A stretch of DNA of 64,000 nt from a virus (taxonomy: Duplodnaviria > Heunggongvirae > Uroviricota > Caudoviricetes): the IMG/VR virus record IMGVR_UViG_3300042870_001966, one strand, 5' to 3'. The notes beneath the pieces were generated by a model. It searched no databases, was not told where the DNA came from, and saw only the letters and a program-made list of their open reading frames with translations. Both the position numbers and the translations under genes were made by a program. Shown here piece after piece: positions 3,451-63,882 of this stretch; position 1 is the first letter of the stretch, and every line of letters begins with the position of its first letter.

Positions 3451-4002
3451 ATGTTAAAATCATTTAGCCAATTCGTAACTGGATTATTTGAAAAGAAAGG
3501 AGACGCTCATAGTTATGGATGTGCAATGGTCTATTTCAATTTTCCAACAATGCCTGAACTGCATTCAAAAATAGATGAAGCAGATATCTACACAGAAGAG
3601 GGCGATCGTTCATACGGTCTTGAGGATGAACCTCATACAACTCTTTTATATGGACTTCATTCGGCAGATATTAATGACGCTAAGGTATTAGAGATATGTA
3701 AATCTAAACCAATCGGTCAACTGACTCTACATAATGCATCTCTATTTGAGAATGCTAAATACGATGTACTTAAGTTTGATGTAGAAAATCCAGTGTTGGC
3801 TGAGATTAATGCAGAACTTAGTAAGTTACCTCACACTACTGATTTCCCAGACTACCATCCACATGCAACAATCGGGTACCTAAAGCCTGGAACCGGCAAG
3901 AAATACGTTGACTTATTTAATGGTAATCGGCATGAAGTCGCTGCTCATAAAATAGTTTATTCAAAACCTGACGACAGTCGAATCGAAGAAGAATGGAATT
4001 AA
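3451..4002 (+). CDS. 2H phosphoesterase (LigT-like) with CTS-like N-terminus
   Basis: Two HxTx motifs (HTTL, HATI). N-terminus MLKSFSQFVTGLFE. Confidence 0.65.
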   Translation: MLKSFSQFVTGLFEKKGDAHSYGCAMVYFNFPTMPELHSKIDEADIYTEEGDRSYGLEDEPHTTLLYGLHSADINDAKVLEICKSKPIGQLTLHNASLFENAKYDVLKFDVENPVLAEINAELSKLPHTTDFPDYHPHATIGYLKPGTGKKYVDLFNGNRHEVAAHKIVYSKPDDSRIEEEWN

Positions 4003-6289: not shown

Positions 6290-6302
6290 CTTATAAAATT
6301 TA

Positions 6303-6584: not shown

Positions 6585-6604
6585 ATTTAATTTGTTTTTT
6601 TTAT

Positions 6605-9450: not shown

Positions 9451-9464
9451 TTGCGTTTCATATT

Positions 9465-12900: not shown

Positions 12901-13725
12901 TTATTTTAATAAAGCGTAATACTCGTTAAAGTGTTTAATACGGTCAGCCAAACCAATCGTTCCACCATTAACTCTCTTAGTTACCGCAGTTACAGCAGCA
13001 GTGTCTGCTCCTTTATCACAAATCGCCCATAAGCCATTAGACTGAAAAAAGAAAGCAGCCGATGCGAGTGGGTATTTTGTAGCGACTAGATCCGGATTAG
13101 CAACAGTATCCTCGCCGATAAATTTTGCAAAGTTTGTGTAATTCGATTTACCAGTCAATTGAATGTAACCGCGACCTCTGAATTTAAAACCTTCTTTCGA
13201 AGCTTCATCTCCATTACCCATTCTAGAAGCATACACTCTAGCAGCGATTTTTTCAGGTTGACGAGCATAAGACTCGTTTAAGTTACCAGGAAAATACTTT
13301 CCGAAGATCTTTTTAAGACCGTCAGCTGAATAGTTTAGATTCTCGTTAACTGCTTTGAATCCTCCACTTTCGTGTCCACATTGCGCAAGGAAGTGAGCTA
13401 ATCTTAAAGGATTAGTGATTCCGAATTTTGCAGCTGTGTCAGGAATTTGAGCGATTACTGCTGCTGGTACATGTCCAGCTAGTTTTTCAAGTTTAAAACT
13501 TGATGGTGGGATTGGCGTAGCTGCTGGAGCTGCAACTGGAGCTGCACCAAACATCTTAGCCCAAGTAGCATCTCCGACGATACCGTCAGGAGTAAGCCCG
13601 TTTGCTTGCTGCCATGCTTTGACAGCGGTTTCTGTTCCAGGTCCGAAGCTTCCATCTGCGCCTACTCCTAGGAGTGCTTGCATTTTGGCAACCTCTGGGC
13701 CATTAGATCCATTCTTTAATAGCAT
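12901..13725 (-). CDS. endolysin: PG_binding_1 domain plus GH19/chitinase-like lysozyme domain
   Basis: Peptidoglycan-binding repeat; LAQCGHESGGF catalytic region. Confidence 0.7.
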   Translation of the reverse strand: MLLKNGSNGPEVAKMQALLGVGADGSFGPGTETAVKAWQQANGLTPDGIVGDATWAKMFGAAPVAAPAATPIPPSSFKLEKLAGHVPAAVIAQIPDTAAKFGITNPLRLAHFLAQCGHESGGFKAVNENLNYSADGLKKIFGKYFPGNLNESYARQPEKIAARVYASRMGNGDEASKEGFKFRGRGYIQLTGKSNYTNFAKFIGEDTVANPDLVATKYPLASAAFFFQSNGLWAICDKGADTAAVTAVTKRVNGGTIGLADRIKHFNEYYALLK

Positions 13726-13774
13726 TTGAAAAGGGTTTTTTGTTATTTATCAATTACTGACCTAAAAAAGAGTC

Positions 13775-13803
13775 ATTAAAAAACCCCCAGTTTAAGCTGG
13801 GGG
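13775..13803 (-). terminator. rho-independent terminator (minus strand)
   Basis: CCCCCAG..CTGGGGG hairpin followed by A-run on plus (U-run on minus). Confidence 0.6.
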
Positions 13804-13825
13804 TTACTAGTAAACTCGTAAATTC

Positions 13826-14428
13826 TTAAACAATATCAGTTGATTCCAATAGAGTGTAAGTGAATGAATTTCCGTGGATTGCTTTAGCTAGATTTGCAAG
13901 TTTCATTAAGGCATTAAAGTCTGCAACCTTTTTAAATACTTGACAACCTTCGGACCAGTTTTCAACGTATTCAGATTGAGTTTTTGGGTTAGAGCGGTGA
14001 CCGTTAATTCCAAAGATTCCTTCTTGAATTGTTGTTTCGTCATACTTCATGTCTTTGTTTTTATCACGATAAACTTTAACTGGCTTAACCTGTCTTAGTG
14101 CTTCGTATTTGCCCTGGTGTAATCCAATCGCCCACATTCCACGATATTGTCCTGGAACTACTCGAGCAACTCCATTTGGATTGTGATATTCAAGCATAGC
14201 TTTCTTACCCGGATCAGTAGTTATTGGCCAGCAGTTAAATTGCCATACGCCGTTAACTTTATAAGAAGCAGTCATCCAATCGTCAAATAGATTAGTAACT
14301 TTATCTGCGATTGCCGCTGAGTTATTTCTAACCCCAACTAGATTTAGGTCATAGTCTTTGGCCCCTTCGAACCAAGCATAACCCTTTGCCTTAACTGCAG
14401 CCTCGATCATTTCTTTTGTGTAATTCAT
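13826..14428 (-). CDS. cell-wall enzyme, L,D-transpeptidase (YkuD)-like
   Basis: GINGHRS...SEGCQVF resembles His...SxGC catalytic pair. Confidence 0.4.
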   Translation of the reverse strand: MNYTKEMIEAAVKAKGYAWFEGAKDYDLNLVGVRNNSAAIADKVTNLFDDWMTASYKVNGVWQFNCWPITTDPGKKAMLEYHNPNGVARVVPGQYRGMWAIGLHQGKYEALRQVKPVKVYRDKNKDMKYDETTIQEGIFGINGHRSNPKTQSEYVENWSEGCQVFKKVADFNALMKLANLAKAIHGNSFTYTLLESTDIV

Positions 14429-16903: not shown

Positions 16904-16991
16904 GGAGGATTGGCAGAGTGGTCGATCGCGGCAGTCTTGAAAACTGTTGTACCGCAAGGTACCGTAGGTTCGAATCCTACATCCTCCGCCA
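16904..16991 (+). tRNA. tRNA-Ser(TGA), type II, CCA encoded
   Basis: Manual fold: acceptor GGAGGAT/ATCCTCC, anticodon loop CTTGAAA, long variable arm, T-loop TTCGAAT. Confidence 0.75.
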
Positions 16992-17210: not shown

Positions 17211-17909
17211 ATGTTAATTAAAAATCAAACGCCATACCTTGGCAAAATTCAGTTGAAGTTCGAGAGATTTCCTCACTACACTGGCAAAACTAAATTAAAT
17301 AAGATCCACTTGGATCTGGGATTTACTAAGTTAGTAAGCCGAATCCGACCTGAAAGAGATTTGGAAGGTTGGGCTGTAAATCCTGAATGTATTAAACAAA
17401 TTGAAGCAACTACTGGGCTAAAGGTAGGAGTTCATAAGTTCGGACCAGACGATGAGTACTCATTACCCAATTCATGCATGAATCCAGACGGAGTTTACGT
17501 TGGATCAATTGAAGAAGGTTGGTGGTACTACAACAATGGCCTCAGAGCAACAAAGGGATCTCATCCTCATACTGCATGGAGTAAGAAGGCAAAGCAGTGG
17601 ATTGGTTATTCTCACCGTGCTTCTTGTGCATTCGGAAAAGGCGATAAACTATTTGATGCTAAATGGAAACCTGCTGAACAAGACCTTCCTCAATACGAAA
17701 AGTTCTACGGCAAGCACCTGGACTCGTATTATAAAGAGTGCGAAGAATGGGCAAAGAGTACCTCTGACCATAAAGCGTCAGAAGAAGAAATGACCCTTGC
17801 TGGTTGGGCAGTAGATCATATTCCTTTTAGACTACGTGGTGCTAAGACAATTCATTCGTATGAAGATGCTTACAAGGCAGCAGTTAACTTTGCAAAATAC
17901 GTATCGTAA
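17211..17909 (+). CDS. hypothetical protein
   Basis: ORF only. Confidence 0.5.
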   Translation: MLIKNQTPYLGKIQLKFERFPHYTGKTKLNKIHLDLGFTKLVSRIRPERDLEGWAVNPECIKQIEATTGLKVGVHKFGPDDEYSLPNSCMNPDGVYVGSIEEGWWYYNNGLRATKGSHPHTAWSKKAKQWIGYSHRASCAFGKGDKLFDAKWKPAEQDLPQYEKFYGKHLDSYYKECEEWAKSTSDHKASEEEMTLAGWAVDHIPFRLRGAKTIHSYEDAYKAAVNFAKYVS

Positions 17910-18166
17910 TGGCAAAAGGCTCTATATTAAATGCACTAAAGAACGAGGCGGACATGAAACGTCTCGTTCTTGAGTTTACTGAGAAATTAGAACATGACCC
18001 GTACCAACCGGGGCTAGTTCATCCGGAAGTCTATCCGGACGATGTTCAGGAAGTACTTGAAGATCTACTGTGGATTAGGGGATTCGATGAAGCGACTATC
18101 AGAGTTAGAAAGAATCCAGATGGAGTATCTGTATCAGTAGAAGTTTTGGGCAGAACTAAGGGATAA
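17909..18166 (+). CDS. hypothetical protein
   Basis: ORF only. Confidence 0.45.
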   Translation: MAKGSILNALKNEADMKRLVLEFTEKLEHDPYQPGLVHPEVYPDDVQEVLEDLLWIRGFDEATIRVRKNPDGVSVSVEVLGRTKG

Positions 18167-18187
18167 ATAATAAAAATAAGATCCCTA

Positions 18188-18739
18188 ATGAAACTTAAGA
18201 GATTTTCACAATTTGTAAAAGAGAGCTTGATAACAGAATCTTCGTCAGTTATTGAAGTTGAAGAAAATATATTCTTAATAGACGAAATAATCTACATAAT
18301 TTGGCTTGTTACACTAGACGTATCTTTCGATTATGAGCCTGACGATAGCAGTGTCGGATTCGTTGGCGGCTATTCAGTTGATGATGTTGACTTTGATGGA
18401 GTAGACGGAGTGTATAAAGTAACTGATCCTTCAGTAATTTCGCAGGTTAAAGCCATGCTAGATTCCCCTGAAGCTGAAGAGTTAAAAAGCATGGGATTTG
18501 AAGGAGCTGATGAATATGCAGCAATTGGCGATTTAATATACGATGCAGAGCAAGAAGAAATTACAGGAGAAGAGCTCAAGGACTTCATTAATAAATTCAA
18601 AGCTCTTTACGATTCAAATACTCTAGTCGATTTAACTGGTACTTTCAAAAAAAGAACTGACTCTGCTCTCGATAGAGCGGTTGAGGATTTTGAACCTGAT
18701 GAGCCTGACTACGATGATTACGACGATGATCGTTATTAA
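18188..18739 (+). CDS. acidic protein with CTS-like N-terminus (MKLKRFSQFVKE)
   Basis: Shares N-terminal motif with 18766, 40926, 43623 and 63082. ATAAATAA lies upstream. Confidence 0.55.
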   Translation: MKLKRFSQFVKESLITESSSVIEVEENIFLIDEIIYIIWLVTLDVSFDYEPDDSSVGFVGGYSVDDVDFDGVDGVYKVTDPSVISQVKAMLDSPEAEELKSMGFEGADEYAAIGDLIYDAEQEEITGEELKDFINKFKALYDSNTLVDLTGTFKKRTDSALDRAVEDFEPDEPDYDDYDDDRY

Positions 18740-18765
18740 TAAATAAACAAAAATTACTTTTTAAA

Positions 18766-19329
18766 ATGAAACTTAAAAGATTCACACAATTTGTTAACGA
18801 AGCAAAGATTAACGAAGCTCAAATCAAAGATAAAACTATCGTTGCTAAGCTTGATAGAATTCACGAAATCAAAACTCGATTAAAAGAATTGACAGCTGAA
18901 ACAAAAGCTATCAATACTGAGCTTGGTGCATTTGATGCAACAATGAAGCCGATCTTTGATGCAATGAAAGTCCTAAATGATAAGCTTGCAACAACTGAAA
19001 AATACGTTATCAAGATTTCAAGATACGGCGGATCTTCTGAAAACCCATCTTATGCTAAAGCTGTAGAGCAGGCACTAGGGTTAGTCGATGCTGCTGCTCA
19101 AGCAATTATCAACGAATGTGTTAGACAAAACACAGCAATATCAAACGTAAAACACTCATACGATATTGAAAAACTAGATGAATCTAAATTAACTGATAAA
19201 GCTAAAGCGATCGTTGCTAGGTTGTCTGGTAAAATCACAGCAATCGTTGCCAAGTTAAAGTCTTTCTTTGAGTCTAAATTCTCTAAGATCGATCAAGCAA
19301 ACGAAAAACTTGCAGCAATGATAAAGTAA
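18766..19329 (+). CDS. coiled-coil protein with CTS-like N-terminus (MKLKRFTQFVNE)
   Basis: Paralogous N-terminus. Confidence 0.55.
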   Translation: MKLKRFTQFVNEAKINEAQIKDKTIVAKLDRIHEIKTRLKELTAETKAINTELGAFDATMKPIFDAMKVLNDKLATTEKYVIKISRYGGSSENPSYAKAVEQALGLVDAAAQAIINECVRQNTAISNVKHSYDIEKLDESKLTDKAKAIVARLSGKITAIVAKLKSFFESKFSKIDQANEKLAAMIK

Positions 19330-19602: not shown

Positions 19603-19678
19603 GGTGAGGTAGCTCAGATGGTAGAGCACAGGACTGAAAATCCTGGTGTCGGCGGTTCGATCCCGCCCCTCACCACCA
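19603..19678 (+). tRNA. tRNA-Phe(GAA)
   Basis: Cloverleaf fold; anticodon loop CTGAAAA; CCA encoded. Confidence 0.8.
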
Positions 19679-19756
19679 ACAAAAAAATGAATAAGAATAT
19701 GAAACGTAAACGCTAAAGGCCCAGTGACTCCCAGAGTTACAGGTCTAAATACACAG

Positions 19757-19830
19757 GTCTTCGTAGCTCAGTTGGTTAGAGCACCTCACTTTTAATGAGG
19801 GAGTCACAGGTTCGAGTCCTGTCGGGGACA
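19757..19830 (+). tRNA. tRNA-Lys(TTT)
   Basis: Anticodon loop CTTTTAA. Confidence 0.75.
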
Positions 19831-19836
19831 CTAAAC

Positions 19837-19913
19837 TGGAATATAGCTCAATTGGTTAGAGCATTCGCCTGATACGCGAAAGGTTATAGGTTCGATTCCT
19901 ATTATTCCAACCA
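19837..19913 (+). tRNA. tRNA-Ile(GAT)
   Basis: Anticodon loop CTGATAC; CCA encoded. Confidence 0.75.
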
Positions 19914-19918
19914 AACAT

Positions 19919-19996
19919 TGCGGGATGCGTAGAAAGCGGTTATCTCGTCAGTCTCATAAGCTGAAGTTCCCGGTTCGAGTCCGGGTCCCGCAACCA
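19919..19996 (+). tRNA. tRNA-Met or Ile2 (CAT), atypical D-arm
   Basis: Perfect acceptor TGCGGGA/TCCCGCA; anticodon loop CTCATAA; CCA encoded. Confidence 0.6.
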
Positions 19997-20005
19997 AAAG
20001 AATAC

Positions 20006-20076
20006 ACGGATGTGGTGCAATGGTAGCATGCGGGTCTCCAAAACCCTAGATGGGAGTTCGAATCTCTCCGACCGTG
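20006..20076 (+). tRNA. tRNA-Trp(CCA)
   Basis: Anticodon loop CTCCAAA. One acceptor mismatch. Confidence 0.6.
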
Positions 20077-20173
20077 CAAATCTTTCGAAAGAAAGTGACT
20101 AAATTAAACCTAATGTGGTATAGTAATCATATAAGTTTAACAAGAGTTCTTTGACTTATTGGAGATTGAAAAT

Positions 20174-20244
20174 TGTCCTGTGGTGTAATGGCAGCACGTC
20201 TGGTTTTGGTCCAGAAGATCGAGGTTCGAATCCTTGCGGGACAA
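20174..20244 (+). tRNA. tRNA-Gln(TTG)
   Basis: Anticodon loop TTTTGGT. Confidence 0.7.
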
Positions 20245-20249
20245 CATAT

Positions 20250-20321
<72 letters not shown>

Positions 20322-20326
20322 CTAAT

Positions 20327-20432
20327 GATTAGATGGGCGTAATGCGGGATGGTACCCAAGTCCCGAACTCGAAAGAGGTAAGGTTGTCTACTCCGTCTTG
20401 CACGGTATCCGGTTCGAGTCCGGCTCTAATCA
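20327..20432 (+). tRNA. tRNA-like element, 106 nt, anticodon undetermined
   Basis: Perfect 7-bp acceptor GATTAGA/TCTAATC. Canonical T-arm TCCGG-TTCGAGT-CCGGC. The internal 72 nt do not fold as a standard D/anticodon arm. Confidence 0.4.
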
Positions 20433-20541
20433 CCCGGATCCATGCACGTCGAGCGCAAACCAATCGCTCTTCAGGTAGATTTGCATGGATAAACAACCCG
20501 TCACGGTATACCCACAGGGTAGGAGTGAACTGGAGAGAAAT

Positions 20542-20613
20542 GGTCCTGTAGTTAATCGGCTATAACGCCGCCCTGTCACGGCGGTATGCCGGGTTCGATT
20601 CCCGGTGGGACCG
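20542..20613 (+). tRNA. tRNA-Asp(GTC)
   Basis: Anticodon stem CCGCC/GGCGG, loop CTGTCAC. Confidence 0.8.
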
Positions 20614-20802
20614 CGAAAGTATATCAACAGAAGTCCGACTTGCACGGATGAAAGGAACCTTGGCTCCATGGGATTAGCTACCCAACCGGAGAGATATAAA
20701 TGACCCAAGGTACTCTGTTCAGGTCCCTGCTCTACTGTGCACAGTATCAGGTTATGGGGAACAAACCATAAGTAAAAACCGGAGCACGGTATACTTTTAT
20801 TT

Positions 20803-20874
20803 GGCCCGTTAGTCTATCGGTTAGGACACGCCCCTTTCACGGGTGAGAGACGAGTTCGATTCTCGTACGGGCTA
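20803..20874 (+). tRNA. tRNA-Glu(TTC)
   Basis: Loop CTTTCAC. Confidence 0.75.
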
Positions 20875-21020
20875 CTAAGAACAACGGTCTCTCCGGCCAA
20901 TGTGATGTCGACAATCACGGTCGGATCAAGAGTTCACCACCCTCAGCCTGGGCCCAGAGAAAACTCTGATGAAGCTGTTAAGATTGGAGCGAGACGGGTA
21001 CTCCAACGTTGTTCTTAAAT

Positions 21021-21097
21021 GGGCTGTTAGCTCAGTTGGCTAGAGCACCGCACTTGCACTGCGGGGGTCGAGAGTTCGAGTCTCTCACGGTCCACCA
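21021..21097 (+). tRNA. tRNA-Ala(TGC)
   Basis: Loop CTTGCAC; CCA encoded. Confidence 0.8.
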
Positions 21098-21102
21098 ACA
21101 TT

Positions 21103-21176
21103 GCCTCCTTAGCTCAGTTGGCCAGAGCGCCTCACTTGTAATGAGGATGTCGGCGGTTCGAATCCGTCAGGAGGCT
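21103..21176 (+). tRNA. tRNA-Thr(TGT)
   Basis: Perfect acceptor GCCTCCT/AGGAGGC; loop CTTGTAA. Confidence 0.8.
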
Positions 21177-21355
21177 CACATCGTATTAGGGTCGTGCCGC
21201 ATTTTGCCACGATACGAAATAGACTTGAGAGGATCAGAGGCGGCCGTGACTACCTCAAGTCGAAGTTAGATAGTGTCTCGGTACGCTCTGGTTAGTCGCA
21301 AGACTTTCTAACGACGAGGTCCCGGTGGGCAGAACGCGTCTGATCCCACCCACTT

Positions 21356-21431
21356 GCGGGAGTAGCTCAGTTGGTAGAGCGCAACCTTGCCAAGGTTGAG
21401 GTCGCCGGTTCGAACCCGGCCTCCCGCTCCA
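21356..21431 (+). tRNA. tRNA-Gly(GCC)
   Basis: Loop TTGCCAA; CCA encoded. Confidence 0.8.
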
Positions 21432-21434
21432 TAA

Positions 21435-21507
21435 GCGGATGTCGTATAATGGCTTATTACTCCAGCCTTCCAAGCTGGAGATGCGAGTTCGATTCTCGCC
21501 ATCCGCT
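21435..21507 (+). tRNA. tRNA-Gly(TCC)
   Basis: Loop CTTCCAA. Confidence 0.75.
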
Positions 21508-21588
21508 CGACCGGTGGCTCCCTTAATGGTTCGAGGCCGACCTCAAACATCGGTGATACGTCATACAGGGGGCGAAAGCGTATCAAAC

Positions 21589-21661
21589 AGTCCTTTAGCT
21601 CAGTTGGTAGAGCATCTGTTTTACATGCAGAGGGTCGTAGGTTCGAATCCTACAGGGACTA
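21589..21661 (+). tRNA. tRNA-Val(TAC)
   Basis: Loop TTTACAT. Confidence 0.75.
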
Positions 21662-21950
21662 CTATGAGCAAGAGATACTCAGTAAGATTGGTCGCATTCT
21701 TTAAAAAAGCGATGGTAGTGAAAAAGTCCTCGACCTTAATGGGGGATCGATTCGGGTAAACGTGAGCAAGACTCTGCCGCGCCGACGTAGAGAGTTGACA
21801 GGTTTTTATGTGGTAAGACACTAATGAAAAAGACTTATTGGGGGAGGACCGTATAGTCTAAGACGTCAATAAGGGATATGGTTCTCGAAACAGTCAGAGA
21901 AACCCGTTAAAATCCAGTCTTCGTACAAGTCTCAGTATGGAGCAAATTAT

Positions 21951-22027
21951 CGAGATGTTGGGGAGTCCGGTTACCCCGCCTGCTTTGGGAGCAGGAGAAC
22001 TCGCAGGTTCGAATCCTGCCATCTCGA
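21951..22027 (+). tRNA. tRNA-Pro(TGG)
   Basis: Loop TTTGGGA; 7-nt variable region. Confidence 0.65.
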
Positions 22028-22135
22028 CAAAAGAACCTTAGTAGAGGCTGACTCCACCAGCTAGGACGTAACGTTCAAGCCTAGCTGAAAGCACGCGCTT
22101 GCGCTGAAATGGTGGTCGAGGTTCTTTTATTTTAT

Positions 22136-22210
22136 TGGGTGTTAGCTCAGCGGTAGAGCTCTCGACTGTTAATCGAGTGGTCCCAGGTTCGAATCCTGGA
22201 CACCCAGCCA
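22136..22210 (+). tRNA. tRNA-Asn(GTT)
   Basis: Loop CTGTTAA; CCA encoded. Confidence 0.8.
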
Positions 22211-22348
22211 AGGTTGATTAGGGAATGATTGTGTCAATAGTTCGAGAGTGAATGCTGACTGACATAATCGGAGTTTGCAGGCATTCACCAGAGTAATGCT
22301 AATCGTAAAATGAGATGTCCACTGAACCATCTTCTCATTTCCTTACCT

Positions 22349-22435
22349 GCCGTAGCGCTGAAGTTGGAGAGTCAGGACAGACTGTAAATCTGTTGTCGTA
22401 AGGCTGAGTAGGTTCGAATCCTACCTGCGGCACCA
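22349..22435 (+). tRNA. tRNA-Tyr(GTA), type II
   Basis: AGACTGTAAATCTG anticodon arm identical to E. coli Tyr; CCA encoded. Confidence 0.75.
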
Positions 22436-22486
22436 AGTAGTTTTGAGGTGGGCGAATTCTACTCTAAAAAAATAATCCCTCCACCA

Positions 22487-22560
22487 GGACCTTTAGCTCA
22501 GTTGGTTAGAGCAGCGCACTCATAATGCGAAGGTCTCAGGTTCGAGCCCTGAATGGTCCA
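22487..22560 (+). tRNA. tRNA-Met or Ile2 (CAT)
   Basis: Loop CTCATAA; one acceptor mismatch. Confidence 0.65.
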
Positions 22561-22644
22561 CAAATTTTTTAGATTTTTTATCATCCGATTAAACCTAAAT
22601 CGATTTTTAATAGTATAGTAATAGTGTATCTTAATTTAAAACAA

Positions 22645-23584: not shown

Positions 23585-24454
23585 ATGGCGACTACTCCAT
23601 TTGCATACAACCCATCGCAAGCTACAATCTCAGGAGCTACTAATTTAGTAAATCTTGCAATAGGCGAGTCTGCTCAAGACTATTCAGCTCAGCCAGGCGG
23701 AGTTACTTGGTGGATGGGACCTGAAGATACAACCGGTTACTTAATTTGTAGACCTGTACCTGCAGGTAATCAGCCAACTCAATTAGGCGCAATCGGAACA
23801 GTTCGATTTGCCAGAAGTGCAGCTAAAACCGATCAATCTTTTCTAGACCTGGCGAATTATTTAAAGAGGGACTTGGGAGGATCTCCTAATTTAGCTAGCG
23901 CATCGGCTGCTCTTACTTGGTTAAATTCAAATGGATTTTGGACTTCATGGGTTCAGCCTTACGTTGCAGGTTTATATAAAACTACATACTCTGGGTATTT
24001 TGCAGATAATGTCAGTTTCTTTGCAACCGCAACGCCTCAAACATTCGGAGCAAATCCAGCTACTTCAGTACAAACTACTGTAATTACTGAACCGGGAACA
24101 GACGATGGATCAGATTTTAGTTGCCAATGGTTAGGTTATTTCAAACCAGCTACTACTGAAACTTATACATTTTACACATCAAGTGATGATGCATCGTATA
24201 TGTGGATAGGTGCAAATGCTCAGACCGGTTTCACTACAACAAATGCAACGGTTAATAATGGTGGATTACATGGGCCGGTAGAAGCATCAGGTACAGCATC
24301 ATTAACGGCCGGCGCGTATTATCCGGTCCGAATTCAATTTGGCGAACGCGGTGGAGGTGATGTACTAACATTTAACTACTCAACTCCGACTATCACTAAA
24401 ACGACTAATGTAACCGGATTAGTTTTCTATAATTCATCTACTAATAACTTCTAA
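23585..24454 (+). CDS. PA14-domain protein (putative carbohydrate-binding/structural)
   Basis: GYFKP..YTFYTSSDDASYMWIG..PVRIQFGERGGG PA14 pattern. Confidence 0.5.
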   Translation: MATTPFAYNPSQATISGATNLVNLAIGESAQDYSAQPGGVTWWMGPEDTTGYLICRPVPAGNQPTQLGAIGTVRFARSAAKTDQSFLDLANYLKRDLGGSPNLASASAALTWLNSNGFWTSWVQPYVAGLYKTTYSGYFADNVSFFATATPQTFGANPATSVQTTVITEPGTDDGSDFSCQWLGYFKPATTETYTFYTSSDDASYMWIGANAQTGFTTTNATVNNGGLHGPVEASGTASLTAGAYYPVRIQFGERGGGDVLTFNYSTPTITKTTNVTGLVFYNSSTNNF

Positions 24455-24483: not shown

Positions 24484-25149
24484 ATGATGAATGAATTTCA
24501 AAAGTACGCAATGAGCGAGCACGGGGTGTCCTCATTGAAATTAGATTATTACGGTAAACAAGTTGAGTCATCGATGACTCCTTATATTTTAGAGGAACGT
24601 GAAATGCGAGTTACTCAAATGGATATTTTCTCCAGATTAATGAGGGATCGTATTCTATGGGTCGCTGGACCAGTAAACGACTACATGTCAACTATTGTAC
24701 AGGCTCAGTTAATGTTCCTAGATTCTGTTGATAATTCAGATATCACAATGCACGTTGACTCTCCAGGAGGATCGGTTAAGTCTGGTCTATCAATGGTCGA
24801 CGTAATGGACTATATCAAAGCCGATATCCGAACCGTAAATACTGGCATGGCCGCATCGATGGGATCAGTGCTATTGGGCGCAGGAACAAAAGGCAAACGT
24901 AGTTCCCTAAGACACTCAACCACAATGCTGCACCAATCGTCTGGCGGTTTTAGCGGCAATATTCAGGATGCTGAAGTTGACTGGGCTGAATGGCAAAAAG
25001 TCAATCATGAACTTTTCGTTCTACTTGGTAAATACTGTGGTAAGAAAGCTGACCAAGTAAAGAAGGATGCAACCAGAGATTTCTGGTTAAATGCTGAAGA
25101 GGCAGTTAAGTACGGAATTATAGATCAAGTAATCACAAAGAAACCTTAA
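24484..25149 (+). CDS. clpP: ClpP-family serine protease
   Basis: SPGGSV...GMAASMG...HQSSGG catalytic triad context. Confidence 0.8.
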   Translation: MMNEFQKYAMSEHGVSSLKLDYYGKQVESSMTPYILEEREMRVTQMDIFSRLMRDRILWVAGPVNDYMSTIVQAQLMFLDSVDNSDITMHVDSPGGSVKSGLSMVDVMDYIKADIRTVNTGMAASMGSVLLGAGTKGKRSSLRHSTTMLHQSSGGFSGNIQDAEVDWAEWQKVNHELFVLLGKYCGKKADQVKKDATRDFWLNAEEAVKYGIIDQVITKKP

Positions 25150-40341: not shown

Positions 40342-40926
40342 ATGAAACACCTTAAACTATACGAAGAATTTGATCTTGACAGATTCCTAGACAATCCAGA
40401 AAAGGAATTAGCTGATGACAATTCACCAGAGATCAATGTAGGAAATTACGTTGACTCATACCGAGGTAAAGGCCAAGTGCTTGATATCGATAGCGATTTT
40501 GCAAAAGTTGAATTACATAACTCAAAAGGCAATATTGTTAAAGTTCCAGTTTTTGCTCTAACTAAAATATCTCACGAAGACCTAACTTCAGCCAAGGTCG
40601 GAGATTCTCAAGCTGAACTTGCGGAGCTAGTGAGTCAGGCCAGACAGTACAATGATTACCTTGACTCAACTGAAGATTATGATAACGAAGATGAAGAGGA
40701 TGGAGTTTACTCAGCAAGTCAGGTAAATTTCGATACCCTACTAGCATATATTCAAGATACAACGATCGATGTTATCTCTATTAAAAATAACGATAGTGCA
40801 TACGATACCTATTCAGAATATCACGAACTGATTAATTTAGTCGGCTCAATCGCTGGAGCAATTCAGAGAGCAAGACCGGACTTAATGGATGAAGTTGATG
40901 CAGCACTAGACAATTTCCCAGGATAA
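40342..40926 (+). CDS. acidic hypothetical protein
   Basis: TATAAATA lies immediately upstream. Weak CTS-like N-terminus LKLYEEFD. Confidence 0.5.
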   Translation: MKHLKLYEEFDLDRFLDNPEKELADDNSPEINVGNYVDSYRGKGQVLDIDSDFAKVELHNSKGNIVKVPVFALTKISHEDLTSAKVGDSQAELAELVSQARQYNDYLDSTEDYDNEDEEDGVYSASQVNFDTLLAYIQDTTIDVISIKNNDSAYDTYSEYHELINLVGSIAGAIQRARPDLMDEVDAALDNFPG

Positions 40927-42257
40927 TGAGACTTAAACGATTTACACAATTCGTTAATGAAAATACTGATGATGCTGAAGAATTAGCAGCATTAGGTTTT
41001 AATTCAAAGATTGACACGGATGAAATTCAAGGATTAATGGCCGAATACAACCCAGAGGAGAAGACCGACACGACATTAGGTTTCGATTTGGGATTTGATA
41101 TGACAGCTGATGATTTAGGACTTGATCCAGAAAGAGCAGAGGCTGCTGAATTAGATAGCGTGTTCCTTGTTCAGTACTATGTTGATTTCGACTTTGAGAC
41201 AATGAAATCTAAAGTACAAGTGGCAGTCTTAAATTCTGGGATTGATTTTGACGGTGCAGGTAATGCGTATGAAGTTGATTTTAAACTGGATTCAGAAAAT
41301 CACGATTCTCAAGGAATCGCTGATGAGTTAACTCAGATTTTGCAGCGAATTGAATACGAAGGCATGTTTGTAGACATGGCAGTCGATATAGTAAATGACA
41401 TAATCGATAGACGTCTTGGAGAAGTATCAGAAAAGAAGAAACTTAAATGGCATGATTCTGATGAGCCTAACACAAAAGGAAAATTCATAATTGAGAACTT
41501 ATCTGATGAAGAAGCTGCAGAACTAAGAGCAATGGGTTTTGGTGGAGTTGACACTGATGCAATCGCAGAACTAGTCAATGGAGCAACTGCAGAAGATCAA
41601 ATCGTTATTGTTTCAGGCCAGTTCAATCAATCTATAGATGATTACGGAATAGATTCATCCGAATATCCGGATATAGAAAGAGACGTATGGACTGATTTTG
41701 AAGTCAGAATAAACTTTATCGATGAAACTGTTAAGTCGTCAGTTAGTGTCGCACAAAAAGATATCGGACTTTACGAAGATGCTGAACTTGAAGACTATGA
41801 ATGGTCTGACCTATTCCAAAATGGAGATCCAGTTTCAATGAAGTCTAATGAGATAGCTGAAGATATTGAACTCTTTATGAGTGCCGTAACTGGTTTCGAA
41901 GACTCGCTTGGAATGTACGACAAAATTCAAGATCTTTTAAATAAGGCAATTGAGGAACAGTATCACAGATGGGATGACGAAGAAGATGATGAAGCTGATG
42001 AAGATGAAATTTCAGAAAAGAAAAAACTTAAATGGCACGATTCTGATGCACCTGATGCAAATGGAAAATTCAGAGACCTTGGAGTTAATAAATTAGCGGA
42101 TTGGTTAATCAGAACAAGAGGTGGTAACATGCAAAAGATTACTGGATCGCTAAATCAACAAATTAATTTTAACAAGCGAAAAAATCCAAGTTATGCCAAG
42201 AAAATGGAGTCGACTCGGGAAGCAGTTAAAAGAAAATTAGCAAAAAGAAAAGAATAA
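40926..42257 (+). CDS. acidic protein with CTS-like N-terminus (MRLKRFTQFVNE) and internal duplication
   Basis: EKKKLKWHDSD(E/A)P..GKF occurs twice. Confidence 0.55.
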   Translation: MRLKRFTQFVNENTDDAEELAALGFNSKIDTDEIQGLMAEYNPEEKTDTTLGFDLGFDMTADDLGLDPERAEAAELDSVFLVQYYVDFDFETMKSKVQVAVLNSGIDFDGAGNAYEVDFKLDSENHDSQGIADELTQILQRIEYEGMFVDMAVDIVNDIIDRRLGEVSEKKKLKWHDSDEPNTKGKFIIENLSDEEAAELRAMGFGGVDTDAIAELVNGATAEDQIVIVSGQFNQSIDDYGIDSSEYPDIERDVWTDFEVRINFIDETVKSSVSVAQKDIGLYEDAELEDYEWSDLFQNGDPVSMKSNEIAEDIELFMSAVTGFEDSLGMYDKIQDLLNKAIEEQYHRWDDEEDDEADEDEISEKKKLKWHDSDAPDANGKFRDLGVNKLADWLIRTRGGNMQKITGSLNQQINFNKRKNPSYAKKMESTREAVKRKLAKRKE

Positions 42258-43622: not shown

Positions 43623-44519
43623 TTGAAGTTACTTAAATTTACACAATTCATAACTGAAGCCCGAATCTCTTCTCACGGAGAGGGTCGTATAGATCAACGA
43701 ATCTATAATCTAGAGTCAATTAACTTACCTAAGCCAGCGAGACAATTTATTCGAGAAGCTGGATTTGAAATAAACGAAGTCTACTCTCAACTCATTGATG
43801 CTATTAAATCTGAATTTAAAAAGAGCCAAGACCATATTGAGAGAACTCAATTTCCATCAGGCCATAAAGCCCTACCAGTAGTTGCACCATTCTTAAAGAT
43901 AGAGGGTACCTCTTATCCAGTAACAATGTCTGTAAAATCATTTAGTGGAGAGATTGAAAAAATTCACATCGGCGAGCGAGTTTTCGCCTATATTTCAGAT
44001 GATGTTCTTACAACAATCAAGGTGCTCCCTCACAGAATGTCTCATAAAGATATTCAAATGGATTTGGAAAATCATCTTTCTAGAAAGGGTAAAACTGGAT
44101 CAGTTACCGTATATGAATTACCAGAAGAGACAGTAAATAGCGTATTTGAACTTACAGAAGACGGTCAAGTAATCCCAGAAAGAAGAGCTGCCTATACTCC
44201 AGCAGTTATTAGCGGAGAACAACAATACTCAGTCGCAGCTGGTAGAAAAATTAAGGTGTTTATTCCATTCCTAAAAGAGTTCACTGAATGCACAATTGAT
44301 GGTGTCCTAAACCGTGATTCTTTTAGAGAAGACCGATTCTTGAAATTGGGAATTATTTTACCGGATGGCAGAAAGATTGCCAAAACTCTAAATCCTGGAG
44401 ATACAGTCGAGCTCCCAATTGGAGAAAATGGGGACTGGGTAAAGACAAAAATCGCAGATTCACTTTACGTATACGATAAGAGAACTGCTGAACCTATTTC
44501 ACTTAAAGCAATCGCTTAA
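43623..44519 (+). CDS. protein with CTS-like N-terminus (TTG start; MKLLKFTQFITE)
   Basis: TATAAATA lies 24 nt upstream. Confidence 0.5.
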   Translation: MKLLKFTQFITEARISSHGEGRIDQRIYNLESINLPKPARQFIREAGFEINEVYSQLIDAIKSEFKKSQDHIERTQFPSGHKALPVVAPFLKIEGTSYPVTMSVKSFSGEIEKIHIGERVFAYISDDVLTTIKVLPHRMSHKDIQMDLENHLSRKGKTGSVTVYELPEETVNSVFELTEDGQVIPERRAAYTPAVISGEQQYSVAAGRKIKVFIPFLKEFTECTIDGVLNRDSFREDRFLKLGIILPDGRKIAKTLNPGDTVELPIGENGDWVKTKIADSLYVYDKRTAEPISLKAIA

Positions 44520-45533: not shown

Positions 45534-45830
45534 ATGCATAATAATAAAATTTTAAGTTTCGAAGAATTCGTTCAACAAGGAACAGGCGAAATGGGTCAGG
45601 AAATGGGCCACGAAATGGACCATACTGCTGAAATGCCACAGGGCGGAGAAGATCAAGCACTATTACCAGCACCAGCTGAAGAAGTAGAAGGCGGAGAAAC
45701 TGAACACAACGTTCCAAACCACATGCAAGATGATTCAGAAGAAGGAACTTCTGACAATGAACCTAATATTGAAGTTGAAACATCAGCTAACGATATTGAA
45801 GCACACACCGACGAAAACGGCGGATTCTAA
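45534..45830 (+). CDS. acidic His/Glu/Met-rich protein
   Basis: Weak CTS-like LSFEEFV. Confidence 0.4.
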   Translation: MHNNKILSFEEFVQQGTGEMGQEMGHEMDHTAEMPQGGEDQALLPAPAEEVEGGETEHNVPNHMQDDSEEGTSDNEPNIEVETSANDIEAHTDENGGF

Positions 45831-54090: not shown

Positions 54091-54456
54091 ATGAGTAACA
54101 AAATTTTAAACTTCGACGATTTTCATAAAGGGTCTAACTTAAGCGATCCCAAGAAACATGCAACGGCCTCAAAACCTGATCAAGTTAAGAAAGAAAAAAC
54201 AATTGATCAAGTTAAGAGTGCTGATCTATCTCAAGTTAAGGTAACTGAGCCTGATTACACGAAAGTATCTAAAACTCCTATTCAAGAGAGCTCAGCTGAT
54301 ACTCAAGCACAGATCGATATAATTAATCAGACCAAAGCACTTAGGGACCAAGTCGCAGCTGCTGCAACTGATGCAGAAAAGATTCAGCTATTGACTAAAA
54401 TCAAGCAGATTGAACAACAAGCTGAGCAGAAAGCAAAGGCTACTAAGACTGCATAA
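54091..54456 (+). CDS. hypothetical protein (weak CTS-like N-terminus ILNFDDF)
   Basis: ORF only. Confidence 0.4.
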   Translation: MSNKILNFDDFHKGSNLSDPKKHATASKPDQVKKEKTIDQVKSADLSQVKVTEPDYTKVSKTPIQESSADTQAQIDIINQTKALRDQVAAAATDAEKIQLLTKIKQIEQQAEQKAKATKTA

Positions 54457-56524: not shown

Positions 56525-58207
56525 TTAAAGTTGTCCTGGTGTTCCTACTTCAGATGAGGTTTCTCCACCAGCCGGTTCTTCTCCAGCTGGGGCAGCAGGC
56601 GCTCCACCAGCAGCAGCGGCTCCACCAGCAGCGGCGCCACCGTCAGCTTTAGCATCATTGTCTTGAGTTGCTTGGTAGCTTCGGTTTTTAGCAATATCCT
56701 CGTCACTTAATTTCAAGTATTCTTTAATTAAGTATTCGGTTGAGAAGTAAGGTTTAGCATCATCATTCACTACCGCTTTCATTGCATTAAGGGTAGCAAG
56801 ACGTTTATTAAGTAATTCCTGAGTTTTAATCTCCTCGAATACATTATCATTGTGCCATAGCATACCTACTGCATTTGAGAAACGGTGATCCGTTTTTAAA
56901 TCCTTAATATCTAAGCACATTTGCAAATACAGAGGTTTGGTGATTAACTCTTTGAAGGCTGATCTTAATCTCTTGATGAATTTATTGTAGCGAATCTCCT
57001 CTCTTGAAATACCTTCCGCATTCATAGTGTATGCACCTTGACCTTCTGACCAACGTGAATATGGAAGTTTAGAGTCAAGCTTTAGTTTATCTTGAAAGTA
57101 TTTTAATAATTCAGAGCCTGATAAATTTGGGCCTGGATATTCAAGTGCTTCAATATCGATTTTCTCGCCTCTATCGTTTACTGGAAGAACGTAGTTTTTA
57201 TAGAAAAGAATATTAGGTTTTCCATCAACCATTAATTCTCCAGAGCTACCATCGAATGTTATATCTTCTTTTAAGGTATTGGTAAACTCACGAACATCTT
57301 CTTTGGCTTTTTGCATTGATTTTGTTCCAACTGGTACGCTTGTTTTTAAACGAATTGGCGCATTCATTGTATGCCAAATAATCTTAGAGTGTTCAATTAA
57401 ACGAAGTAGGTTAAATGAACGAAGTAGTCTCTCTACGAAACTAACTCGCTTGGTTCTAAATTCATTTGAATATGAAATGTAGATAATTTGTGAATCAGTT
57501 AAGGTACGATTCATCTTATTAATGGGATCACGTTGAGACCATTGCAGATAAATTTTTCCGCCTGAATCTTTTTTTACTTCAGGATAAAGAGTAGATGGAT
57601 CTAATTCCTTAAATCCAATAATATCTTTTGGATTTGAGATATTGTCGTAAATGATTTCAAATGCCAAGTGACCTTCAATTAACCATTGGTAAAAGTACTG
57701 CCATGCTGAAATTCCTCTGTCGAAACTCCATGCACTATAGATCTTTGCAAAATTTTCTTGGTACTTCTCAATTACTTTTTCTTGATAGTTAAGACGTTGG
57801 TCTTTATTCTTTCCTCGGTAATTAATTTCTCCAACTAGGTCATTTGGATAACAGAATCGATTATCTTCATCGTATACAATTGCATCATCTGCAATAGTTT
57901 CAATAACGAATTCAATTTCGCCATTTGATGCAAGATCCCTAAGTCTCTCTCTTTTCTGAACATAGTCTAATTGAAAGAACGCGATTGACTTGTTCTTTAA
58001 TGAGGATGTCGTATCGGATAGAGCAAGAGTAGCCTTCATCAGATCATCTCCCATTGCGTTGTTGAAACCCGTTAACTGACCTTCAATGTAACCTATCGCT
58101 TGTGAGTTCTTCACAAGAAGGTCATCGTATTTCATACCAAATCGACTTAGTGCGGTTAAGCTTGATCTAAGCCCTTTCATTGGGTTACTGTCTAAAAATC
58201 CTGCCAT
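56525..58207 (-). CDS. portal vertex protein (T4 gp20-like)
   Basis: DDAIVYDED resembles T4 gp20 SDAIVYEDD. Size about 560 aa. Confidence 0.65.
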   Translation of the reverse strand: MAGFLDSNPMKGLRSSLTALSRFGMKYDDLLVKNSQAIGYIEGQLTGFNNAMGDDLMKATLALSDTTSSLKNKSIAFFQLDYVQKRERLRDLASNGEIEFVIETIADDAIVYDEDNRFCYPNDLVGEINYRGKNKDQRLNYQEKVIEKYQENFAKIYSAWSFDRGISAWQYFYQWLIEGHLAFEIIYDNISNPKDIIGFKELDPSTLYPEVKKDSGGKIYLQWSQRDPINKMNRTLTDSQIIYISYSNEFRTKRVSFVERLLRSFNLLRLIEHSKIIWHTMNAPIRLKTSVPVGTKSMQKAKEDVREFTNTLKEDITFDGSSGELMVDGKPNILFYKNYVLPVNDRGEKIDIEALEYPGPNLSGSELLKYFQDKLKLDSKLPYSRWSEGQGAYTMNAEGISREEIRYNKFIKRLRSAFKELITKPLYLQMCLDIKDLKTDHRFSNAVGMLWHNDNVFEEIKTQELLNKRLATLNAMKAVVNDDAKPYFSTEYLIKEYLKLSDEDIAKNRSYQATQDNDAKADGGAAAGGAAAAGGAPAAPAGEEPAGGETSSEVGTPGQL

Positions 58208-62819: not shown

Positions 62820-63092
62820 ATGGAACAATTGGATTCATTCATTGAGTATCTGTATACGGTAGAAGAGAACTTAACTCAACTAACGACAGATCAAGTAAAA
62901 AAGCTACAGTCAATTCAAACTAAAGTAAGTGAATTAGTTAATAAAATTCAAACGCCTCAACCGGCCCAGCCTCAAAGCCAACCCCAAGTTCAAGTACGAT
63001 CAATGGAATTACAGTTAGCTGAAAATAAGGTTCAAAGCTTCTCAAACTACATGGAGTTAAAAGAAACAACTAAAGCAAAGAATGCTAGGTAA
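62820..63092 (+). CDS. hypothetical protein
   Basis: ORF only. Confidence 0.4.
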   Translation: MEQLDSFIEYLYTVEENLTQLTTDQVKKLQSIQTKVSELVNKIQTPQPAQPQSQPQVQVRSMELQLAENKVQSFSNYMELKETTKAKNAR

Positions 63093-63882
63093 AAGACTCC
63101 ATACATTTTCACAATTTATTCTAGAAAGAGGTGATTGGAATTACGCAAATCACTATGCTCAATACCTAAATAAGTTCACAGAAGATTCTGTTATATTGGA
63201 TCTACTTAAAGACTTTGATAAACAGGTTAATGAATTGGAGGATACTTACTGGTATAATAGAGAAAGTCGAAATTTTAGAAACGACCATTATGCACTAGAC
63301 ATGAAAATCCACTCATACCCAGATGTACAGAAATGGGCAGCACTAAAAGGATATTCAGCTGAGGAAATTGAAGAAGATGAGTCGTCATTAGAATCAGCAA
63401 TGTGGGATCAGTGGGGTAGATTCATGGAAGAGACTTACGAAGTTAATTCAGAAGACTATATGAATACGTATGACTGGTTAACTAAAGTTGGAGTAGGGGG
63501 CCAAAGCGGAGGCTGGCTATTACTAGCAATGGAGGACAGTCATTCTGACTTGGAAAGAATTCTAGAAGATAAATTCGATATGTACTTAGAAGAAGTAGCA
63601 GACGCAAATGCTGGATCAATTCAGTTACTAAAACAAATCATTGAAAATCCAGAAGAGACTGCTGAGCTCATTGAGTTTGGAATAATTGATGAAGAGACTG
63701 CTGCTAAAGCAGAGGAGATTATTGAAGCTCGAGATGAAGTTGAAAACTGGTTACGTGAAAAACTGAATGAATTGTATCAAATAGAAAGGGATCTTGATGC
63801 AATTAAAGATGATATTAATAGATTTAGACAGACTGCATTAGCTGATTTTTACGTATGGACCTCTGATTCAGAAGACTATTAA
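63082..63882 (+). CDS. acidic protein with CTS-like N-terminus (..RLHTFSQFILE)
   Basis: Paralogous N-terminal motif. Confidence 0.5.
   Translation: MLGKRLHTFSQFILERGDWNYANHYAQYLNKFTEDSVILDLLKDFDKQVNELEDTYWYNRESRNFRNDHYALDMKIHSYPDVQKWAALKGYSAEEIEEDESSLESAMWDQWGRFMEETYEVNSEDYMNTYDWLTKVGVGGQSGGWLLLAMEDSHSDLERILEDKFDMYLEEVADANAGSIQLLKQIIENPEETAELIEFGIIDEETAAKAEEIIEARDEVENWLREKLNELYQIERDLDAIKDDINRFRQTALADFYVWTSDSEDY

Follow-up and report, generated by a model that had tools for sequence, protein, structure and literature searches.

Several otherwise unrelated proteins of an uncultured huge tailed phage begin with the same short peptide, which we regard as a probable capsid targeting sequence (CTS) of the kind known from phage T4. 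The phage is represented by a 64,000-nucleotide stretch of DNA (IMG/VR record IMGVR_UViG_3300042870_001966; Caudoviricetes), analysed over its whole length and called the window here. Within it, at least five and probably six to nine proteins share an N-terminal peptide of about 12 residues, hereafter the tag, with the consensus M-K-L-K-R-F6-[ST]-Q-F9-[VI]10-x-E12, while the proteins behind the tag (the cargos) are otherwise unrelated. We consider it likely that these shared 12-15 residues act as a T4-type targeting sequence and propeptide that is cleaved after the Glu by a prohead protease of the gp21 family. The initial annotation of this DNA had proposed a T4-like CTS on many unrelated cargos, and its proposal gains support from the match of the tag to the residues of the CTS of internal protein IPIII, from a portal of the Portal_T4 family, from the Peptidase_S77 and Gp23 genes of the related phage LR756500.1, and from tagged genes that lie beside gp20 and gp21 in other phages. 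As it also stated, the family is larger than the three internal proteins of T4, with six to nine tagged proteins in the 64-kb window.

A shared N-terminal peptide on unrelated proteins

The pattern M-x-L-x-[KRT]-F-[ST]-Q-F-[VI]-x-E forms the start of five open reading frames (ORFs) on the plus strand, named here by their start positions: 18188, 18766, 40926, 43623 and 63082. In a six-frame translation of all stop-to-stop ORFs of at least 50 amino acids, the core F[ST]QF[VI] occurs six times, always on the plus strand and within the first 17 residues of an ORF, and no internal copy was found. We then scored the window with a position-specific scoring matrix (PSSM) trained solely on tags of other phages from IMG/VR, with the Met column omitted; the five highest scores among 67,418 window 11-mers belonged to the N-termini of 18766 (the highest, 32.8), 40926, 43623, 18188 and 63082 (down to 14.3), followed by a spurious ORF at 11.0, against a background mean of -28.9. 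A looser tag pattern is about 8-fold enriched within the first 20 residues of window ORFs and also recovers three weak copies (40342, 45534 and 54091), which keep the aromatic-x-x-F and lack [IV]-x-E. The same pattern hits 38601 (DFEEFIKG), which is the N-terminus of a DinG/ResIII-type helicase and was rejected as probably not a member.

All nine N-termini quoted in the initial annotation translate as written there; five fit the consensus and a sixth, 3451, is off register, whereas the three weak copies do not carry the [IV]-x-E that the annotation had assigned to the pattern. Neither F6 nor F9 varies among the window copies or their orthologs. The [VI]10-x-E12 element is present in five of the six copies, with L-F-E in its place in 3451, and the Glu is invariant in orthologs.

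The tag is a peptide motif and not a DNA repeat. In a codon alignment, differences between the window copies are mostly synonymous (TTT/TTC, AAG/AAA, AGA/CGA, GTA/GTT, GAG/GAA, and TCA/AGC for Ser), implying that selection acts on the peptide, and the upstream DNA holds nothing alignable beyond a short promoter-like octamer. The nucleotide-level repeat that the initial annotation had raised against its own proposal was thus not found.

Once the tag is trimmed, the only feature that BLASTP finds shared among these proteins is a short EELxxMGF motif of 18188 and 40926. The tagged proteins are therefore not the paralogous family they had been taken for, and only the tag is common to them. Their isoelectric points (pI) are 4.05, 9.48, 4.26, 6.68, 4.24 and 5.19 (18188, 18766, 40926, 43623, 63082 and 3451, respectively), so that the earlier description as mostly acidic holds for four of the six (pI 4.05 to 5.19) but not for the neutral 43623 or the basic 18766. 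That the cargos are unrelated to IPI-III was borne out: no Pfam or PHROG match to T4 internal-protein families was found among the tagged window proteins, and BLASTP gave no significant match beyond the tag.

Correspondence with the T4 capsid targeting sequence

The CTS that T4's internal proteins IPI, IPII and IPIII carry was reportedly described by Mullaney and Black in 1996. In the T4T record, IPII and IPIII start with MKTYQEFIAE followed by A, and IPI starts with MKTFKEFTSTTTPVSTITE followed by A (pattern MKTFKEF...ITE, then A). The first 10 residues of IPIII suffice for incorporation, and mutagenesis assigned targeting mainly to residues 4 and 7 (Y4, F7) and processing to residues 8 and 10 (I8, E10), with Asp at position 10 blocking processing while leaving targeting unaffected (PMC9026906). 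The invariant F6, F9, [VI]10 and E12 of the window tag are spaced exactly like Y4, F7, I8 and E10. The weak copies keep the two residues corresponding to targeting and not those corresponding to processing, and 40342 (...YEEFDLD) would, by analogy, mirror the Asp-10 phenotype of T4.

In both systems the peptide lies at the extreme N-terminus, spans about 10-19 residues, follows the order M-K-...-aromatic-x-[QE]-F-[IV]-x-E before a small residue, and is borne by unrelated, fast-evolving cargos in phages with a gp20-type portal. The window tag differs in being two residues longer and in having Q instead of E before the Phe. It also numbers six to nine members within 64 kb, with at least 22 in the complete genome of a relative, versus three in T4, and its cargos are not related to IPI-III, are mostly acidic and in relatives include leucine-rich repeat (LRR) proteins and enzymes; on our side, this comparison draws on sequence only.

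The two systems are also alike in that tagged genes cluster near tRNA and anti-defence genes. A homolog of Tad6, an inhibitor of type I Thoeris, is encoded at 17211..17909 on the plus strand (Pfam PF25188, 78.8 bits, with 27 as the cut-off), two genes upstream of the pair 18188/18766, and the order from Tad6 to the tagged pair is kept in relative L071 and in the P0002 contig. The window has 26 tRNA genes in clusters at 16904-16991, 19603-22561, 36465-36545 and 42429-43356. Tagged genes flank both main clusters, 18188 and 18766 preceding the first, 40926 preceding the second and 43623 following it. The window order of Tad6 ... tag, tag, tRNA genes thus resembles that of T4, 57B/Acb1, ipI, tRNA genes ... 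ipIII, ipII; in the T4 parallel (L003), ipI has 57B (Acb1) as one neighbour and the tRNA cluster as the other, beyond which come ipIII and ipII.

Tag families in related giant phages

The window has no nucleotide-level relative in 50,697 phage records, and its affinities were established through the portal gene (56525..58207, minus strand). As the initial annotation had it, this is a gp20-like portal (Pfam Portal_T4, 223.8 bits; PHROG portal; tblastn with T4 gp20, E 2e-14). Its best matches are in LR756500.1 (462 kb, 42% identity), in the 634-735-kb uncultured huge phages LR7565xx/LR745206 and in the Lak Prevotella megaphages. The closest complete relative, LR756500.1, has a head module in which the portal (228664-230346) is followed by a 632-residue Peptidase_S77 protein (226725-228623; 42.6 bits) whose C-terminal part is scaffold-like, and by a Gp23 capsid protein (118 bits), with a gp55-like late sigma factor, found only in this relative, near the head genes. 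The start of the S77 protease (...KKSLLIIE-R) echoes the LIE-9 site near the N-terminus of T4 gp21. In the window, a nucleotide-sugar epimerase-like gene (55589-56512, minus strand) follows the portal where LR756500.1 has its protease and capsid genes, from which it appears that the head module of this lineage is broken up, and relatives L037 and L039 show the same.

In LR756500.1, at least 22 proteins start with MKYI[KQL]EYEEF[ILV]xE, a dialect closer still to the T4 YQEFIAE. The strict motif Y.[ED]F[ILVM].E occurs there 19 times within the first 12 residues of a protein versus twice in 134,730 internal positions, and one of the two internal occurrences is a mis-called start. About 11 of the tagged genes form a tandem array (312960-323395), and Pfam identifies among the cargos five LRR proteins, a DUF5661 protein and a PNK3P/HAD phosphatase. 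A C-terminal motif, ..KYEHLxNADDFGFFDN, recurs in nine of the 22 tagged proteins (for example 13446-14282, 124308-125087 and 198758-199531; L145-L154) and may be a second signal or the mark of a true paralog subfamily; the five LRR-bearing proteins appear to be largely the same as those with this C-terminal motif. A further relative, LR756502.1 (642 kb), has a tandem tagged set starting MSRIRKYKEFITE-S.

The slot between the helicase (38601 in the window, 125331-127070 in LR756500.1) and the ortholog of the gene at 44659 is occupied by tagged genes in both phages, with different cargos and with each phage's own tag dialect, indicating that the tag follows the phage and not the cargo. Among close relatives from IMG/VR (for example L037 and L039), whose portals are 88-92% identical to that of the window, tags are retained while cargos diverge, and the tag is conserved far above the cargo in orthologs. 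Members are gained (two extra tagged genes in L027) and swapped (a new 195-residue cargo after the 40342 ortholog in L049).

The tag across IMG/VR and within T4-type head modules

To survey IMG/VR we used M-x-[LIVFM]-x-[KR]-F-x-Q-F-[VIM]-x-E as a degenerate DNA pattern, which returned 46 loci, almost all at true ORF starts; a more stringent pattern found nothing in this database, and the relaxed ones succeeded. The pattern KFxQFINE, with ATG not required, gave 98 matches, with a Met one to five codons upstream in at least 54 of them (roughly 65-70 by inspection), and the N-terminal matches comprise 24 clusters of unrelated cargos. Codon use for this peptide is diverse among phages of 21-43% GC. 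An exhaustive search of 1.84 billion proteins with a profile hidden Markov model yielded 17 significant matches, 16 of which begin at residue 1-2; only matches with E up to 1e-3 were listed, so this search confirms the position of the tag rather than its prevalence. Word-indexed profile searches with the tag alone, which need several shared 5-mers and are unsuited to a 12-residue motif, returned only 7 and 9 short ortholog fragments.

Across the IMG/VR survey, 94 of 140 loci share genes with the window, with LR756500.1 or with the T4 head genes. In a T4-like contig (L009), the gene order is gp20, a tagged protein of 147 residues (MAIKKFSQFVEE-A), a 98-residue ORF, gp21, gp22 and gp23, such that the tagged gene sits in the slot that T4 fills with genes 67 and 68 for its prohead core. 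In L110, a gene for a tagged ADP-ribosyltransferase (PF03496, 69.5 bits) overlaps the end of gp20; its Pfam family also includes T4 Alt (124 bits), whose annotation records presence in the capsid and entry into the host along with the DNA. An internal copy of the motif (...WETKFNQFINE-AGEK) is seen in L142 and L077, in the protein directly upstream of gp21. Tagged cargos of other phages (L029, L014, L129, L066, L054) include, by Pfam, a RimK ATP-grasp with a zinc-protease domain and an AAA_33/zeta-toxin-like kinase and, read by eye without a Pfam match, cytidylyltransferase-like (HxGH), Pol-beta-type nucleotidyltransferase-like and HAD-like proteins.

Individual tagged genes of the window

The first two tagged genes lie in tandem on the plus strand. 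Gene 18188..18739 encodes 183 residues (pI 4.05), its codons 1-12 (18188-18223) spelling the tag MKLKRFSQFVKE, after which SLITE forms a second possible cleavage site. Orthologs in L001, L071 and L027 retain the tag, even at a cargo identity of only 32-33% in L071 and L027, where it reads MKLKRFTEFVNE. Gene 18766..19329 encodes a basic protein of 187 residues (pI 9.5), predicted to be helical or coiled coil, with the tag MKLKRFTQFVNE (18766-18801) followed by AKINE; its orthologs (P0001, P0005-P0007, P0029, L027 and L071) retain F6, F9 and E12.

The third gene, 40926..42257 on the plus strand, has a start codon overlapping the stop codon of 40342-40926 and encodes an acidic protein of 443 residues (pI 4.26; tag MRLKRFTQFVNE, 40926-40961). 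It is internally duplicated, with SEKKKLKWHDSD.P...GKF and EEL..[ML]GF each present twice, and its relatives include a one-repeat form of 246 residues (P0036) and a form of 434 residues (P0032); in L049/L032 its slot is filled by a different tagged cargo of 195 residues. The fourth, 43623..44519 (plus strand, 298 residues, pI 6.7), starts with TTG, which brings it into the same register as the other copies; its tag, (M)KLLKFTQFITE (43623-43658), is followed by ARIS, much as in T4 IPII (EFIAE-ARV), and its ortholog in L049/L032 has the variant MNILNFNDFLLLE-A.

The fifth, 63082..63882, is the last gene of an apparent plus-strand operon (62217-63882) and encodes 266 residues (pI 4.24) with the tag MLGKRLHTFSQFILE (63082-63126). 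In its 14 homologs, which are 40-98% identical overall and mostly only 40-54% identical to the window protein, M1, L2, G3, L6, F9, F12, I13 and E15 are invariant. Its AlphaFold model has a predicted local distance difference test score (pLDDT) of 82.9, and the sole segment below 50 comprises residues 1-15, exactly the tag up to the Glu. In tblastn, neither 18766 nor the 63082 family had a match among the 50,697 phage records.

Gene 3451..4002 (plus strand, 183 residues) is atypical. It starts with MLKSFSQFVTGLFE (3451-3492), where the Glu is shifted by three residues (L-F-E), and its being off register (FSQFVTGLFE) makes it the weakest core member. Its cargo carries both HxT motifs, scores just below the Pfam cut-off of 27 for 2_5_RNA_ligase2 (25.3 bits) and Acb1 (25.0 bits), matches PHROG 755 (E 2e-10), and among PDB sequences matches only Acb1 (7T26, E 0.66); a single-sequence AlphaFold model has a pLDDT of 29.7. 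Judged by these similarities, the cargo is possibly an Acb1-like 2H phosphoesterase.

The three weak copies are all on the plus strand. Gene 40342..40926 (194 residues, pI 4.1) starts with MKHLKLYEEFDLD, in which D-L-D stands in place of [IV]-x-E behind the aromatic-x-x-F; its ortholog in L049 starts with MKYIKIFEDFDLD, near the LR756500.1 dialect. Gene 45534..45830 (98 residues, pI 4.05, low complexity) starts with MHNNKILSFEEFVQQ, and its ortholog in L032 with METSHSKILSFEEFTQS. Gene 54091..54456 (121 residues, pI 9.05; start MSNKILNFDDFHKG) lies directly upstream of an adaptor-like gene (54471-55211) and is syntenic with LR756500.1 320199-320726 (MKYLLDLNDYNEID), which is likewise upstream of the 54471 ortholog.

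A promoter-like octamer upstream of tagged genes

The octamer ATAAATAA occurs 17 times in the window versus 7.7 expected, a count reached in none of 100 shuffles. The initial annotation had instead named TATAAATA motifs, the exact form of which is not enriched in the window (3 found versus 5.7 expected). Thirteen copies of ATAAATAA sit 4-22 nt upstream of a start codon, such that several mRNAs would be nearly leaderless. On the plus strand, the copies at 18163..18170, 18739-18746, 40330-40337, 43593-43600, 45507-45514, 54068-54075 and 62193-62200 precede tagged genes or operons, namely 18188, 18766, 40342 (whose stop codon overlaps the 40926 start), 43623, 45534 (19 nt upstream), 54091, and 62217 with the operon that ends in 63082. 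Further copies start at 6601, 13743, 19377, 23556, 42254, 52742, 53805 and 59402. One precedes the endolysin gene (12901-13725), the copy at 59402-59409 heads an operon of the head-closure gene, a gene for 221 residues and the portal, and others precede 23585 (a PA14/GLEYA gene, then ClpP), 52769, 53818 and 6303. Two of the tRNA clusters likewise have copies about 170-220 nt upstream.

Within 40 nt upstream, the octamer is found at five of eight tagged ORFs versus 7 of 90 other ORFs (Fisher p = 5e-4). Furthermore, in the IMG/VR loci ATAAATA lies upstream of 13 of 56 tagged ORFs versus 96 of 1093 others (p = 0.0014). From its resemblance to TATAAATA and from the genes it accompanies, we infer that ATAAATAA is a T4-like late promoter.

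Other genes of the window

A gp4-like head-closure gene (58891-59397; PHROG head closure) lies in the same operon as the portal. Two further T4-like features had been claimed, a gp52-like topoisomerase and a gp43-like polymerase. A topoisomerase II subunit is indeed encoded in the window. A PolB-type polymerase ORF (60520-62145, minus strand) is present as well, but its match to the family profile covers the C-terminal part alone (positions 500-838 of 856), for which reason the DNA polymerase appears to be split; a primase gene (59406-60530, minus strand) overlaps the end of this ORF.

The host is probably a member of the Bacteroidota, as indicated by a protein of 640 residues (10960-12882, minus strand) with a cohesin domain and a type IX secretion sorting domain (Por_Secre_tail, 32 bits) and by its neighbours (4627-10184, minus strand), a run of genes with Bacteroidota-style signal peptides of which 4627-5370 is a DUF481 gene. 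These domains point to phage-encoded proteins that would be secreted by the type IX system of the host. The PA14/GLEYA-domain protein (23585-24454, plus strand), with the octamer before it and ClpP after it, has two or three diverged copies in L027 and L071. Auxiliary genes encode an RNA ligase with a PHA02142 OB domain (34118-35320), a protein resembling phosphoribosyl pyrophosphate synthetase (28430-29359), an SPFH/Band 7 protein (31292-32725), a sulfate-permease-family transporter (944-2086) and a family 2 glycosyltransferase (217-921).

Alternative explanations

Several observations weigh against a T4-type targeting sequence. No gp21 or gp23 homolog and no prohead protease was found within the 64-kb window, and the S77 protease was seen only in the relative with a 42%-identical portal. 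The tag and the T4 CTS are alike at about five positions, and their pairwise alignment is not statistically significant, for which reason we argue the match from position-specific function and not from an E-value. Most window cargos are strongly acidic, whereas the T4 internal proteins are described as basic (PMC9026906), and some tagged cargos elsewhere resemble ordinary cytoplasmic enzymes (the AAA_33/zeta-like kinase and, by eye, HAD-like proteins). Gene 3451 has neither the exact tag register nor an upstream ATAAATAA, and the window encodes a Clp machinery that could use an N-terminal recognition tag (see below).

The tag might instead be a docking peptide for some other partner, such as a chaperone, a component of the neck, tail or baseplate, or an intracellular compartment, its likeness to the T4 CTS being convergent. 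What has been observed is indeed the peptide and not its partner; moreover, the tagged genes of LR756502.1 adjoin very large, possibly structural ORFs, and 54091 adjoins an adaptor-like gene. However, genomic context ties the tag specifically to portal, protease and scaffold genes, an enzyme of the Alt family bears it, and its terminal [IV]-x-E before a small residue fits the cleavage rule of gp21-type proteases (PMC5694885, PMC9026906). We therefore consider this explanation unlikely.

The main rival reads the tag as a degron or other signal by which the phage's own Clp machinery would recognise the tagged proteins, giving them a short, timed life. The window encodes a full-length ClpP (24484..25149, plus strand; Pfam CLP_protease, 196 bits), which is 74-95% identical in several relatives, and a Clp ATPase of 660 residues (50749-52731, plus strand), a ClpB/ClpA-like double-AAA+ protein (AAA_2, ClpB_D2-small and ClpB/ClpA models) with an apparently absent N-domain. 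N-terminal recognition motifs are known for ClpXP and ClpAP substrates, and the tag is, in the model of 63082, an exposed and unstructured N-terminal peptide. Yet LR756500.1 has a large tag family with no match to the window Clp ATPase and only a 26%-identical ClpP-like match, and in T4-like contigs tagged genes lie inside the gp20-gp21-gp23 head module, both of which weaken this explanation. A degron, moreover, does not predict the invariant [IV]-x-E or the match to the mapped T4 residues, and there is no evident reason to make a whole set of late, highly conserved proteins only for destruction. On balance, a degron seems quite improbable, somewhat more so than a docking peptide.

Conservation at the level of nucleotides or translation, as in an operator, a translational enhancer or a recombination cassette that includes the start codon, would suit the A/T-rich tag codons and the conserved octamer upstream of many tagged genes, but it is largely refuted by the synonymous differences between copies (TCA versus AGC for Ser among them), by upstream DNA that is unalignable apart from the octamer, and by the diverse codons used across phages of differing GC content. 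Chance is refuted outright: A/T-rich phages do use K, F, N, I, Q and E often, but such composition leaves unexplained the absence of internal copies in six frames, the gap between the top PSSM scores and background, the N-terminal excess in LR756500.1 and the start positions of the profile matches.

A model for the loading of tagged proteins

Under a T4-type targeting sequence, we propose that the tagged genes and the head genes would be transcribed together at a late stage. The N-terminal peptide, short and amphipathic, would then bind the scaffolding core of the assembling prohead through the aromatic residue at position 6 and Phe at position 9, the counterparts of Y4 and F7 in IPIII, so that any cargo behind the tag would be trapped inside the shell. 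Next, a prohead protease of the gp21 family (Peptidase_S77) would cut after the invariant Glu of [VI]-x-E, the counterparts of I8 and E10, releasing the mature protein within the head. Finally, some cargos would exit with the DNA at infection, as do IPI and Alt of T4. Some injected cargos may be anti-restriction factors, as the initial annotation had suggested from T4. The very acidic, low-complexity members could instead belong to the prohead core, like gp67/gp68, and would then not be injected but degraded or expelled; 18188, 40926, 40342 and 45534 resemble gp67-like core proteins in composition only. That such members act as DNA mimics is speculation. Every one of these steps, from core binding through cleavage and packaging to injection, as well as the late timing, is inferred.

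T4 Alt offers one precedent, being packaged through an N-terminal propeptide, cleaved by gp21 and injected, and a tagged enzyme of its family adjoins gp20 in L110; the likeness is limited in that this enzyme belongs to another phage and not to the window. The likeness to gp67/gp68 lies in the slot filled by a tagged protein in L009 and in the gp67-like acidic tails of 18188, 40926 and 40342, with no homology beyond low-complexity acidic runs. A BLAST match between gp67 and 40926 (E 1e-6 with composition correction off) was traced to such runs and rejected. Encapsulin cargo-loading peptides provide a functional analogy only: there, too, a short terminal peptide brings diverse cargos into an HK97-fold shell, but it is usually C-terminal, uncleaved and non-viral. 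The giant phages phiKZ, 201phi2-1 and SPN3US have a gp21-related protease that cuts after Glu and many processed internal or ejection proteins, including the paralogs gp53 and gp54 with an identical 15-residue N-terminus (PMC5694885). In contrast to the window tag, however, their propeptides mostly exceed 100 residues and are cut at an A/S-x-E motif, and no short consensus tag recurs across the genome (PMC5694885); these phages also belong to another lineage (Chimalliviridae-like) than the clade studied here. In full-text searches of a collection of papers, the sole giant-phage article to mention the CTS dealt with the phiKZ-like SPN3US, and none dealt with Lak or Mahaphage-type huge phages.

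Implications for huge phages

The CTS concept, together with CTS-like sequences in relatives of the T-even phages, is already known (PMC3012670, PMC9026906); what is new here is the dialect of the tag, together with a repertoire of cargos that is much larger and diverse in its enzymes. The T4 CTS represents a classic mechanism known on only a handful of proteins, and the same logic is found here: six to nine proteins bear the tag in a 64-kb window and at least 22 do so in a 462-kb relative, and environmental phage contigs yield at least 24 unrelated tagged cargos. Given that the key residues of T4 are present and that each of the related giant phages has some twenty or more of these proteins, the tag may be a label for proteins carried inside the capsid.

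More tentatively, and with somewhat less confidence than doubt, we suggest that huge phages of the T4 superfamily load dozens of proteins through a lineage-tuned N-terminal tag and deliver them with their DNA as an arsenal of anti-defence effectors. The cargos of such an arsenal would include LRR binders, ADP-ribosyltransferases, 2H phosphodiesterases and polynucleotide phosphatases.

If the tag is a targeting sequence, part of the role of the many orphan genes of huge phages would be explained, and a one-line sequence rule would predict the packaged or injected proteins of uncultured phages and megaphages. It would also single out candidate first-strike anti-defence effectors, among them the Acb1-like 2H enzyme, the LRR proteins, the Alt-like ADP-ribosyltransferase and possibly acidic DNA mimics, encoded beside known inhibitors such as Tad6, and it would supply new orthogonal tags for protein delivery by engineered phages.

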